Below, piece after piece: positions 30,500 through 59,524 of a DNA stretch of 64,000 bases. A model generated the notes under the pieces. The model was not told where the DNA came from, searched no databases, and saw only the letters and a program-made list of their open reading frames with translations. The stretch comes from Candidatus Heimdallarchaeum endolithica (GTDB lineage Archaea > Asgardarchaeota > Heimdallarchaeia > Heimdallarchaeales > Heimdallarchaeaceae): NCBI GenBank assembly GCA_021513715.1, contig CP084167.1:1472001-1536000 (forward strand), in the 5' to 3' direction. Every line of letters begins with the position of its first letter. The stretch's first letter is position 1. The translations under genes were made by a program, and so were the position numbers.

Positions 30500-31894
30500 T
30501 TAAACAGCCAAATAAGGATTAATTTCTTTTGCTAATCTCAAAGCTTTTTTCAGTAAAGCGACAGGATATGACCATTGGGTTCTAATCTCTCTAATTTTAG
30601 ATTGTAGCTCTTTCTTACCTAATAAGGCAAATGATGTAATTATAAAAGTCATTGACACTAGTTGGTTCAATTCACGTTGTATCCTTTTTACAGCTTCCTC
30701 ATAAGGTTTATCTTTCAATTCATCAAATAACTTCTTAAAGTAATCACTTTCTCTAATACCATGAACAATTCTATTATCTAAATCAATTAAGGTTGCAGTT
30801 TCCTCAAGGATATTTTTCTTTTCTAAAAACGTGAAAGTTTCTTTTGACATACCAACAATCTTAGGAGTAAAACGCTTTTCTTCAGAGGGTCTATATTTGT
30901 CGTCCACATATTCCATGTATGAAGTTTGAAGATGTTGTGTAAAAATGGCAAGATTGTCCATTACTATCCTTACAGAGACTCTATCTCCTGTTATATAAAT
31001 TGGCTCTCCTACGATTGCAGAATATATTGCTTTTCCTATATTATCTTTAACAAGCCTTAACAACAGATGAAATGAAACATGATCTCTGTTTACAAAAGCA
31101 AGCTTATTTCCTGGATCCTCAATATTTCTTAACTTTTCCAATATTTCAGGGATAGAAATATTTTGCCTAGATAATTCGCCAACTTTCTTTTCAAATAAGG
31201 GGAACATTCGAAAAATAGTGTAATCTAAAGCATTTGGGAAAAGCAAATATCCAATTGACAACTTATTCTCATACTTTTTTAAGACTATAAAAGGAACAGT
31301 TTTTTCTTCAGGAAAAAGCATTAGAATGCTTCGTAAGTAATTAGTTTTTAGGAATTCAGTTTTTTGGTTATATAAAACATTAACAATTTTTCTAAAAATA
31401 GGTTCAACAATTCCATCATTTTTTATAATACTCCATGGATCAGTAGAGAGATCAACGTCAAAATATTTAATGTGAGCCAATTTTATTGGGTGATCACTCA
31501 AAGTAATGAAAAGGCGTTCAATATCAAACAAACATTGCTCCACTAGAAGGTTAGCCTCTCCCTCAGTAAGTTCGCTAGGTTTCACATGTTCTAACAATTC
31601 TCCTCCCACATTTCTAATTGTAGTATATATTTCATTTCTCTTCTTGTCTGATAACTCAGTTTCGTCCATAATTTCTAAAATAAAAATGTAATCTTCTCCT
31701 ATTCTAGTGGTTAATATTGTTCTATCATGGTAGGCTATTGATTGAAGTTCTCTCTTATGAATCTCATGTGAAAAAGAGATAATTGCACTAATCAATCCTG
31801 TTGCTAGTACGTGTTTTGTTTTATCCTCAATATCAGGTTTGGTTGCAAGTAATATTCCTGCTGAATTAACAAGCGAAAGTCTAAAAGTAGGCAT
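30500..31894 (-). CDS. Longin domain + C-terminal DENN/folliculin-like domain protein
   Basis: N-terminal longin (LVNSAGILL...LATGLISAIISFSHEIHKRELQSI). C-terminal AIYSAIVGEPIYITG...DNLAIF...KIVGM...TLIDLDNRIV matches the cDENN pattern. Confidence 0.6.
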   Translation of the reverse strand: MPTFRLSLVNSAGILLATKPDIEDKTKHVLATGLISAIISFSHEIHKRELQSIAYHDRTILTTRIGEDYIFILEIMDETELSDKKRNEIYTTIRNVGGELLEHVKPSELTEGEANLLVEQCLFDIERLFITLSDHPIKLAHIKYFDVDLSTDPWSIIKNDGIVEPIFRKIVNVLYNQKTEFLKTNYLRSILMLFPEEKTVPFIVLKKYENKLSIGYLLFPNALDYTIFRMFPLFEKKVGELSRQNISIPEILEKLRNIEDPGNKLAFVNRDHVSFHLLLRLVKDNIGKAIYSAIVGEPIYITGDRVSVRIVMDNLAIFTQHLQTSYMEYVDDKYRPSEEKRFTPKIVGMSKETFTFLEKKNILEETATLIDLDNRIVHGIRESDYFKKLFDELKDKPYEEAVKRIQRELNQLVSMTFIITSFALLGKKELQSKIREIRTQWSYPVALLKKALRLAKEINPYLAV

Positions 31895-34810: not shown

Positions 34811-35179
34811 TTACTCTCCTGCCTTTCTTTCTTTTTGGTTAGCTGGTCCTAAATTTCTTATATGAATTGGTATCGTTGAAGGAATAATCATTACTGTATC
34901 TTCACTAACCATTCTAACAGTAGAGAATGATTCTGAAGCACAGAGTTTTAGAGCAGTTAAAAATCTTTTTCGACGATCTGGATAAGGATTTATTTTTCCT
35001 ATATTTAGAAAAACTAAATTTCCTGTTTTTACTTCTTCAACTATTGGTTCAGCATTAACTACATCGGAAAGACGATAAAATTTTACTTGAGGCTGGATTA
35101 TCTTAGGTTCATCTTTTATTTCTACACTTTCCTCTTCCTTACTCTGAGCAAAAAATTTTCCTATTCTCAAGATTAGCAC
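34811..35179 (-). CDS. sepF: Archaeal SepF-family cell division protein
   Basis: Short N-terminal amphipathic segment, a linker, then VKFYRLSDVVNAEPIVEEVKTGNLVFLNI...VRMVSEDTVMIIP. The true start may be the TTG at 35170. Confidence 0.75.
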   Translation of the reverse strand: MLILRIGKFFAQSKEEESVEIKDEPKIIQPQVKFYRLSDVVNAEPIVEEVKTGNLVFLNIGKINPYPDRRKRFLTALKLCASESFSTVRMVSEDTVMIIPSTIPIHIRNLGPANQKERKAGE

Positions 35180-56096: not shown

Positions 56097-57341
56097 TTAT
56101 ATAGCCGTTGGAAACTTTGCATAGCTTCTAAACTCTATCCAATCTTCTAAGTGCCTGTTAATTATATTTTCTATTTCATCTTGATCTAGTTTTCTTGCAA
56201 CTGATTCATCAGATGTTAATAAAGCCATAATATATCTTTCATTTTTAAATTCTAGATCTCGTAGTATGAAAATTTCATTTGTTTTTTCTTCATCATCTAG
56301 AACGTATCTTCTTATTCTTAGAAAAGGTTCTCTCATATTTGCTATAGTTTCAATTGCTTCATAGTATGCATTATGGGATAGTTCTTCTAGTTTCTCATTT
56401 TTTGAGTATTGAGCAAAGCAGATATTACTTCTAAAATCATATAAACCAAAGAATTCTGCATTAAGAGTTTCAGCTACTTGTTTTGATGCATTTGCGATAT
56501 AATCTTGAATTAAACTTATGTTTCTAAATATGTGTGAAAAAGCACCTAGTATGGAAGAACGTATATGAACGCTCGTTCTAAAGATTCCTTTTGCTGGATC
56601 AAATGAAGGAACATTAGAATGTAAATATTGCACCATTGAACCAAATATTGAATTAGCTTTTTCACTTAAGACAAAATCAGGGTCAGATTTGTGGAAGAAT
56701 ATAGTCCATGGAACATCTAACCTTAGTTTTTGAGTAACATTAACTATTTGTTTTAAATATTCAAAACTTTCTTCATATCTATCTTCCGCTTGAACATCTA
56801 CCACATAAATAATTGTATCTGTTCCGATAAAATACTGTTCAGGATTATTGAGATAGTCATCTCTGTATATTTTTTGTCCTCCTAATTCATGTAAGTGAAT
56901 ATCAAGACCAAAAACCTCTAACTTTCCACGTAAAAGCCCTCTTGTAGGAGTTAAAGCATTTAACTTCTGGAAAAGCAGAGAAAAAGCTCCTCTGTGTTTC
57001 AAAGCAATGGAAAGTGAGGTTTTTCCTACATTATCTATCCCTGCTAAAATAATTTTAGCTCCTGTGGTTATTTTTTCAGTTTTCTCCACAAGCAAAAGTT
57101 TGCTTGCAGCAATCCAACTATCTATACGCTCTTTTGGAAAAAGTTTTGACAGTTCATTGTAATGTTTATTCCACTCCTTTGCCAATTTTTCAATTGTTTC
57201 TAAACCAAAATTCTCAAGAGACTTAACCTCACTTTCTCTAATATCTAAGAGGGCTATTACTGGTAAATCAGCTAAATTAGTTTCTTTTCTATAATCCTCT
57301 TTTAACAGCTTTTCTTTTATATCTAACACTTTTTTCACCAA
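56097..57341 (-). CDS. Small GTPase (Arf/Rag-like) with N-terminal HhH-like domain and C-terminal roadblock/longin-like domain
   Basis: G1 GIDNVGKT, G2 PTRG, G3 ELGGQ, G4 HKSD and G5 TSV; ~90-aa N-terminal and ~135-aa C-terminal extensions. Confidence 0.85.
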   Translation of the reverse strand: MVKKVLDIKEKLLKEDYRKETNLADLPVIALLDIRESEVKSLENFGLETIEKLAKEWNKHYNELSKLFPKERIDSWIAASKLLLVEKTEKITTGAKIILAGIDNVGKTSLSIALKHRGAFSLLFQKLNALTPTRGLLRGKLEVFGLDIHLHELGGQKIYRDDYLNNPEQYFIGTDTIIYVVDVQAEDRYEESFEYLKQIVNVTQKLRLDVPWTIFFHKSDPDFVLSEKANSIFGSMVQYLHSNVPSFDPAKGIFRTSVHIRSSILGAFSHIFRNISLIQDYIANASKQVAETLNAEFFGLYDFRSNICFAQYSKNEKLEELSHNAYYEAIETIANMREPFLRIRRYVLDDEEKTNEIFILRDLEFKNERYIMALLTSDESVARKLDQDEIENIINRHLEDWIEFRSYAKFPTAI

Positions 57342-57514: not shown

Positions 57515-59524
57515 ATGTTTTTTACGGATAAACAGCAACGAATGGAGAAAAGAAAATTGCGTGCACGTAGATTAAACAAAATACTGTTGATTACATTATT
57601 ATTAATTACCACTTTTTCGGTAAGCATATTTGGAAGAGCATATTTTTCTTCAGTTAGTGATTTTGGAAAGACAGACCCAAATTATTCGATAAATAATATC
57701 GTAGCTTTTGACACCAATGAGCCCATAATTGACGGGAATTTAGAAACTTATGAAGGAGAGTGGGCTAATGCTACAGTTTATAGTAATATCATAGATGGGA
57801 TAAACTATACTATTACTTTAAAAGCCAATGAAACTCATCTTTTCTTTGGAATAAGTTATGAAACCAATTTGTTTGTCGAACTTACAGAATCTAACGCAAG
57901 CATCCCTCACACCTGGTATACAATTGTCTTTGATAGCAATTTTGACAAAGAATTTGGAACAGAACTAGTCCCTGAAGACACAATCCTATTTAACTATCAA
58001 GAAAAGGATGCTACAGATGCTACTTTAAACGGAACAGAAACAAATTCATTGACTTTAGATGAAGAACTAGGAGGAGAAGACAATACTGTTGGAGCAATGC
58101 AAACAGATCTTTTTGTTGAAGAATACACAGTAACAATTGAAATAGCTAAAGAATTAAATTCAGGAGATAAAAAAGGAAATGACATATCTCTACACCCAAG
58201 CGATGCAATTCTATTTGCTTTAATTCCATTTGCTAATCATACAAATATATTCAACAATACTGAGGTTCCCACTTTACAATGGAATTCTTTGAGACTAGAA
58301 CCCACACAGGAGTTCTACTCTTATGTAAAAAATACTGAAGATTTATCAGTAGTAACTTATATTACAGATTCAGTAAGATCTAATAAAAAAGATTTTAATT
58401 CAATAGGACACATGTTAGAAGCCTATCAACTAAATTCTCAGTTGGCAGATAAAAATAACTTTGAGATCACAACAGAAAATCTTAACGATGTTGATCTATT
58501 TATTATGGCAGGAAATCAAAAATCTTTAACATCTAGCCAAATTGCAGTATTACGTTCATATTTGACTAGTGGAGGCAGCATACTTCTTATTGCAGATGAA
58601 GTAAAAAATGAGAGTTCAATTAACGAATTATTAAGAATGTTTAATATGGAATTTTACAATGCAACACTTTACTCCAACAATACTGCAATAAATGATTCTC
58701 TTACTTTTGATCAAACAGCCCTTGCACAATTAGATTATCTACAAGAGGATAGCGTATTTACTGAAACTACATTCGACAACGTCTTTTACACAGGTACTGC
58801 AATAAAAAATATCTCAACTTATGGAGAAAATATTTTGTTTGGTCAAGATGCAGACTTATATCCTATTCTTTCCAAAGAAGGAGAATTTTTCATCAATCTA
58901 GGTGAAAAAACAACTTATAATAGTTCAGAAGATATCCCAATAAATAATGCAATATTACAAACTGCTTTAGAACTAAAATATGGAGGAAAAATGATAGTTT
59001 CTGCATCCTCTGACATGTACAATTCTACAAATCTTGTTTTTGGTTCAAATAAAATGTTACTTCTTAAAGAGATTCAGTGGTTACTTAATTTCAGATTTAG
59101 GATAAACTACGAAAACTTTAATGTCCCTCAAACAAAAGTTACAGAAGGCAATCCAATTGAAATGAATATTAGTGTCACAGGAAATAATGATACAGTTTTG
59201 GCAGATGTAGAAGTGCAAGGAAGAGTGCTTGTTCTCAAATCAGTTGTTTCATCTGTTACATTAAATGTTTCAGATAACAACATTGACTTCTATGGACAAA
59301 TTGTTCCAAAAACTAAAGCTTCTTGGGTTGATGTTGAGATACTGATGCATAAGAGAGGATATGGATACAACTACACTGAACTAGTAGAAATTCTAATTGA
59401 GAAACAAATAGAGATTCCAATAGCAATAGATTATGTATCTTTAATAATATTTATAGCTTCAATAGGATTGGCTATAATAGGAATAATAACCCTAAAAAGG
59501 CACAAGATTCGAAAAGAAGAATAG
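57515..59524 (+). CDS. Secreted/membrane-anchored glycoprotein with DOMON/CBM9-like and GIFT/DUF4350 (GATase1-like) domains
   Basis: N-terminal TM; PIIDG...EW...HLFFGI...TIEIAKELNSGD; ITTENLNDVDLFIM...LTSSQIAVLRSYLTSGGSILLIAD...INELL; C-terminal TM with basic tail. Confidence 0.7.
   Translation: MFFTDKQQRMEKRKLRARRLNKILLITLLLITTFSVSIFGRAYFSSVSDFGKTDPNYSINNIVAFDTNEPIIDGNLETYEGEWANATVYSNIIDGINYTITLKANETHLFFGISYETNLFVELTESNASIPHTWYTIVFDSNFDKEFGTELVPEDTILFNYQEKDATDATLNGTETNSLTLDEELGGEDNTVGAMQTDLFVEEYTVTIEIAKELNSGDKKGNDISLHPSDAILFALIPFANHTNIFNNTEVPTLQWNSLRLEPTQEFYSYVKNTEDLSVVTYITDSVRSNKKDFNSIGHMLEAYQLNSQLADKNNFEITTENLNDVDLFIMAGNQKSLTSSQIAVLRSYLTSGGSILLIADEVKNESSINELLRMFNMEFYNATLYSNNTAINDSLTFDQTALAQLDYLQEDSVFTETTFDNVFYTGTAIKNISTYGENILFGQDADLYPILSKEGEFFINLGEKTTYNSSEDIPINNAILQTALELKYGGKMIVSASSDMYNSTNLVFGSNKMLLLKEIQWLLNFRFRINYENFNVPQTKVTEGNPIEMNISVTGNNDTVLADVEVQGRVLVLKSVVSSVTLNVSDNNIDFYGQIVPKTKASWVDVEILMHKRGYGYNYTELVEILIEKQIEIPIAIDYVSLIIFIASIGLAIIGIITLKRHKIRKEE

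Follow-up and report, generated by a model that had tools for sequence, protein, structure and literature searches.

Which kind of GTPase regulator, if any, is encoded by the gene at 30500..31894 in the genome of Candidatus Heimdallarchaeum endolithica? GTPase regulators built from DENN and longin domains underlie membrane traffic and nutrient signalling in eukaryotes. An earlier note on the 64,000-nucleotide stretch of DNA analysed here (the window) had read the gene product as a DENN-module protein with folliculin-like architecture and had proposed the GTPase encoded at 56097..57341 as its partner. For Asgard archaea, the text of Liu et al. (bioRxiv 10.1101/2020.10.19.343400) describes DENN proteins, a folliculin (FLCN)-like architecture in Heimdallarchaeia and paralog expansions.

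The gene is an intact open reading frame with an ATG start, located on the minus strand of a genome that consists of one 3.33-Mb contig. As intact, full-length homologs exist, the gene is considered real: homologs share 35-61% identity with its product (protein P0001), and the ortholog from Ca. Heimdallarchaeum aukensis, a member of the same genus, is 94% identical. In a 50%-cluster library 20 proteins match at E<=1e-30. The gene is flanked by priS (convergent, 8-bp gap) and the alanyl-tRNA synthetase gene (divergent, 93-bp gap) within a housekeeping cluster that also holds priL, Pol IV, SepF, TFB and thioredoxin, and appears to be a stand-alone unit. A promoter and terminator scan around it, of a kind ill-suited to archaea, stayed at shuffle level. 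A functional tie to primase and alanyl-tRNA synthetase was rejected, as this synteny is confined to the closest relatives. The SepF-family cell-division protein of the same conserved cluster is encoded at 34811-35179 (minus strand) of the window.

No meaningful Pfam or PDB sequence match was obtained with P0001 as query, and the family profile yielded nothing usable against Pfam and PDB sequences; the assignment therefore rests on fold and profile evidence. The features derived from it are:

30500..31894, minus strand: gene of the longin-longin-cDENN-dDENN protein P0001 (464 aa)
31499..31894, minus strand: longin 1 (aa 1-132), a generic Asgard, Mon1/Ccz1/Fuzzy-LD1-like longin
31721..31813, minus strand: conserved longin-1 helix alpha1 to beta3/beta4 hairpin (aa 28-58)
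31109..31492, minus strand: longin 2 (aa 135-262), a degenerate uDENN-type longin
31250..31288, minus strand: longin-2 beta4-beta5 hairpin (aa 203-215), site of the arginine-finger loop in FLCN/SMCR8-type longins
30755..31093, minus strand: cDENN alpha/beta domain (aa 268-380), which holds the motifs quoted in the earlier note
30500..30754, minus strand: dDENN helical domain (aa 381-464), four helices in the model and in alignments

The three regions read from the letters (an N-terminal longin, a middle alpha/beta region and a C-terminal part) are real structural units in the model. The quoted motifs occur in the expected order, namely a long segment at residues 277-318, YMEY at 326-329, KIVGMS at 345-350 and the TLIDL segment at 368-377, and are followed by four predicted helices at 384-458. 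The best Foldseek matches of the model are DENN-module proteins, headed by DENND1A/1B; as they reach E-values of 4e-7 to 1e-5, the resemblance is beyond chance. Foldseek and structural alignments show that the C-terminal ~190 aa take on the cDENN and dDENN folds, as the earlier note had expected of an archaeal DENN-module protein, and the alignments with DENND1A and folliculin run through the dDENN helices to residue 458-459. In the model, the third domain is a cDENN and not a longin, with an alpha/beta sandwich of P-loop-like topology that lacks nucleotide-binding motifs; an all-helical region follows it and a longin (longin 2) directly precedes it. By these three structural features the modelled P0001 belongs to the DENN-module fold family. 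The identities of the chains FNIP2, FLCN, C9orf72 and Fuzzy were inferred from structure entry titles, residue ranges and the SMCR8 alignment. The bacterial type VI secretion regulator TagF (PDB 9t0n / 6iz8) was also among the DENN matches of the model (E 5.4e-4; 3.3e-3 with longin 2), hinting at a DENN-like fold in bacteria.

One part of the initial reading had to be reassigned. The N-terminal longin, previously taken as the uDENN element, does not match the FLCN-type archaeal longin in profile comparison (probability 0.1%) and resembles the first longins of Mon1, Ccz1 and Fuzzy; the uDENN equivalent is the former middle alpha/beta region. Longin 2 is not a duplicate of longin 1, an idea rejected at a profile probability of 0.3%, and on its own it found no Foldseek match at E<=0.001. 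Model, fold search and profile alignment together thus give an anatomy of an extra longin, a degenerate uDENN longin, cDENN and dDENN.

P0001 is, like the Asgard FLCN-like longin-DENN proteins, a heimdallarchaeial DENN protein, and archaeal FLCN-like proteins of 367-401 aa align collinearly with its cDENN, its dDENN and the latter half of longin 2 (hhalign 99.5%). Unlike these, it has an extra N-terminal Mon1-type longin and lacks both the GP motif and the arginine finger. It is a variant of archaeal DENN proteins already known; the double-longin form goes unmentioned in the text of Liu et al., figure 5b and the supplements aside. With folliculin/FNIP and SMCR8/C9orf72 it shares the longin, cDENN and dDENN fold and the occurrence of relatives as paralog pairs, yet it differs in the extra longin and the missing catalytic arginine and GP motif, and identity in the structural alignments is only 7-14%. 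The tri-longin GEFs Mon1-Ccz1, Fuzzy-Inturned and BLOC-3 (HPS1/4) carry three tandem longins, which P0001 does not, and Pfam matches of longin 1 to tri-longin LD1 families remained below the curated cut-off.

With the longin-2 profile, the family was found in 32 of 301 Asgard genomes, all from three families of the class Heimdallarchaeia, and in none of the remaining genomes searched. A further profile match (C1:178295) was rejected as chance, since the gene belongs to a hydrogenase cluster and its product resembles a hydrogenase maturation protease. Heimdallarchaeum and its closest relatives carry a single copy in the primase/AlaRS cluster. In a sister genus there are two paralogs, side by side at 13 of 19 loci, which form two supported clades apart from the Heimdallarchaeum clade in a midpoint-rooted tree. 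As the pair occurs in one genus only and this genome is single-copy, it is not the ancestor of the eukaryotic FLCN-FNIP or SMCR8-C9orf72 dimers.

The GP motif (beta1-beta2 hairpin) and the arginine finger define longin GAPs, and Asgard longins bearing them have been described (PMC12290439). In P0001 homologs the GP motif is absent from either longin (0 of 50). P0001 has no arginine in residues 203-215, and the beta4-beta5 hairpin of longin 2 has no conserved arginine column among the 50 homologs; it is uniformly short, its loop being ~7 residues shorter than in FLCN/SMCR8-type longins. The finger position was located via an alignment to SMCR8 144-150 that is weak. Archaeal FLCN-like proteins carry the two features completely or almost completely, their loop arginine aligning (weakly in position) to SMCR8 R147, and that loop is deleted in the P0001 family. 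FLCN/SMCR8/NPRL2 GAPs have a single N-terminal longin, whereas P0001 has two. P0001 is thus outside the catalytic FLCN/SMCR8 GAP class, and the label "folliculin-like" holds for its fold but not in the catalytic sense.

Conservation is distributed unevenly over the protein. Among the domains, mean pairwise identity is lowest in longin 2 (27%) and highest in longin 1 (45%), where it reaches 60% in residues 25-62, from alpha1 to beta4 (50 homologs). Conserved residues in 28-58 are L30, G33, A37, F41, E44, H46, S52, Y55 and D57. Longin dimers dock GTPases on paired alpha1 helices, as in Mon1-Ccz1 and TRAPP (PMC5216073; PMC10933270), and by analogy with this interface the alpha1-beta3/beta4 region of longin 1 is a candidate dimer and GTPase-docking surface. 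In every homolog the longin-1 beta4-beta5 turn is short, which leaves no room for a long Mon1-type loop. A homodimer prediction for P0001 (two copies, 50-row alignment) scored 0.29 against a mark of 0.42, a score that weighs neither for nor against a homodimer.

The proposed partner at 56097-57341 (minus strand) is a Gtr1/RagA-like GTPase that is extended by ~90 aa at its N-terminus and has a roadblock/longin-like part at its C-terminus; the genome holds two Rag-like genes and about 42 small-GTPase genes. The distance of this candidate from the P0001 gene (24.8 kb) does not single it out, as a random gene of the size of the P0001 gene has a 45% chance of a small GTPase within this range, and no Rag gene was seen beside P0001 homologs at the loci examined. 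A 669-aa protein encoded nearby (57515-59524, plus strand) has an IFT52 GIFT-domain match above the Pfam cut-off. Unlike the DENN genes in the roadblock-Rab-DENN operon of the Liu et al. text, the P0001 gene lies outside such an operon: its neighbours, also in close relatives, are primase and alanyl-tRNA synthetase, and not an adjacent LAMTOR-like roadblock and Rab-like GTPase. In relatives, the neighbourhood includes the following cassette:

L008-L011, L013, L023 and L024 (upstream of the homolog) and L032:7373-9228, strand not given: stand-alone longin, Arf-family GTPase and membrane protein

Here a stand-alone longin with a conserved arginine (~164 aa) is combined with an Arf-family GTPase and a multi-pass membrane protein. 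A P0001 homolog lies just downstream in 7 of the 19 sister-genus loci, and the cassette also precedes a 23%-identical homolog in another genus (L032). It is not adjacent to the P0001 gene in this genome, nor to homologs at loci from other families. The link spans two genera but is not general, and the loci are related. The cassette is a compact candidate Arf-GAP module. Its Arf-family GTPase has a likely amphipathic N-terminus, and its longin shows weak profile links (about 2% probability) to FLCN-type longins or longin 2. Cassette-type stand-alone longins are expanded in one other Heimdallarchaeia family, with up to 9 matches per genome. At a locus of another genus, a 149-aa stand-alone longin with intact GP motif and loop arginine (L031:1209-1658, plus strand) lies 4.6 kb upstream of the homolog. 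At one locus only, a V4R-domain gene (TRAPPC3/Bet3-related superfamily; L042:6035-6916, plus strand) precedes homolog P0003 by 84 bp, with both genes on one strand.

Only three DENN proteins are recognisable in this complete genome, and their longin arrangements all differ: an FLCN-type longin with arginine in a 367-aa protein, a Mon1-type longin in a 326-aa protein, and both in P0001, where the FLCN-type one is stripped. The 367-aa protein (C1:2878882-2879985; L036:2883-3986, plus strand) keeps the finger-loop arginine, has GS for GP, is encoded 2.3 kb from a small GTPase gene and is a better candidate for a folliculin-like GAP than P0001. In the 326-aa protein (C1:868714-869694; L002:1012-1992, plus strand) the longin is joined directly to cDENN/dDENN; it has a weak Folliculin_C match, and its gene lies about 3 kb from an Arf-longin fusion with the same longin type. 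A 156-aa stand-alone longin (C1:918813-919283; L037:2314-2784, plus strand), probably a relative of the cassette longin, lacks GP motif and arginine and is encoded 3.5 kb from a small GTPase gene. The other two DENN genes and this longin thus lie 2.3-3.5 kb from a small GTPase (chance 7-9% each). Whole-genome searches with Folliculin PF11704 and NPR2 PF06218 gave no match, even though the genome encodes FLCN-like proteins; the two models lack the sensitivity needed here. Longin-bearing proteins of the genome also include Arf-longin and membrane-protein-longin fusions.

The reading that we favour, at somewhat less than an even chance, is that P0001 is a Heimdallarchaeia-specific DENN protein in which an extra N-terminal longin and a complete, catalytically stripped DENN module would serve a small GTPase as a non-catalytic scaffold or as a platform of the GEF type, engaged via longin 1. 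Longin 1 may pair with another longin, be it a second copy, the tandem paralog in relatives or one of the ~40 longin-bearing proteins, and the paired alpha1 helices would then dock the GTPase as in Mon1-Ccz1 and TRAPP. The DENN part could add a second binding or dimer surface, and longin 2, having lost its catalytic loop, might mainly be a structural linker. This proposal is based on the DENN fold, the two longins, the concentration of conservation in the longin-1 alpha1-beta4 region relative to longin 2, the absence of GP motif and arginine, the alpha1 pairs that make up the GEF surface of Mon1-Ccz1 and TRAPP, and the tandem paralog pairs at 13 of the 19 sister-genus loci. The likeliest client would be an Arf-related GTPase, as homologs follow the Arf-containing cassette in the sister-genus loci and at L032, and not the Rag-like GTPase of the window.

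It appears unlikely that P0001 acts instead as an autonomous DENND1-type GEF, in which uDENN, cDENN and dDENN of one chain remodel switch I of a Rab-like GTPase while longin 1 has a targeting role alone. In its favour, P0001 has the full set of DENN sub-domains, its best fold matches are DENND1A/1B and DENND GEFs likewise lack the GP motif (PMC12290439). The model does not reproduce the uDENN packing of the Rab GEFs DENND1A/1B and DENND10, from which P0001 also differs by its extra longin. There is likewise a small chance that P0001 is a GTPase-independent adaptor, whose longin 1 links 7TM-like membrane or TPR proteins that bear the same longin type to other machinery and whose DENN part is a protein-protein module. 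Many of the ~41 longins of this type in the genome form part of 5-7-TM proteins or of long proteins that are not GTPases, homologs in the cassette and at L026/L027 are flanked by genes for multi-pass membrane proteins, and no GTPase gene is adjacent to the P0001 gene in loci of the Heimdallarchaeum lineage; yet every characterised DENN module or longin dimer cited has a small GTPase as its target, and the other DENN/uDENN genes of the genome lie 2-3.5 kb from small-GTPase genes. Similarly improbable is a role as non-catalytic subunit of a heterodimeric GAP for an Arf-related target, as C9orf72 is to SMCR8 or FNIP to FLCN, with longin 2 pairing in trans with an arginine-bearing longin, either of the 367-aa protein or of the stand-alone cassette type in relatives. 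Differences in Z are 1-2 units at middling scores, C9orf72 keeps a GP motif (PMC12290439) that the P0001 family lacks, conservation of longin 2 is low for an interface, the P0001 and 367-aa genes are unlinked here and the stand-alone longin of this genome has no arginine. It is very improbable that P0001 is a folliculin/SMCR8-like GAP that works alone, supplies its own arginine finger and has the Rag-like GTPase of the window as its target, given that both longins lack the GP motif and finger loop and that this GTPase is one of two Rag-like and about 42 small GTPases, at a chance-level distance.

In the literature on Asgard DENN proteins, as far as it was covered here, no measured activity was found. 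The double-longin form is more suggestive of lineage-specific domain shuffling than of a eukaryotic ancestor, because it was found in only three Heimdallarchaeia families, a restriction that limits its weight. With its three DENN proteins, this genome offers a limited and well-delineated set on which GEF/GAP and pairing assays could be run. We give a decidedly slim chance to a wider idea, that P0001 belongs to a functional archaeal longin-DENN complex that regulates an Arf-related GTPase, with a Mon1/TRAPP-type GEF platform fused to a non-catalytic C9orf72/FNIP-like DENN module and the arginine supplied by a separate longin (the cassette in relatives, the 367-aa paralog here). If true, such a complex would be a prokaryotic version of the division of labour between catalytic and non-catalytic subunits in FLCN-FNIP and SMCR8-C9orf72.
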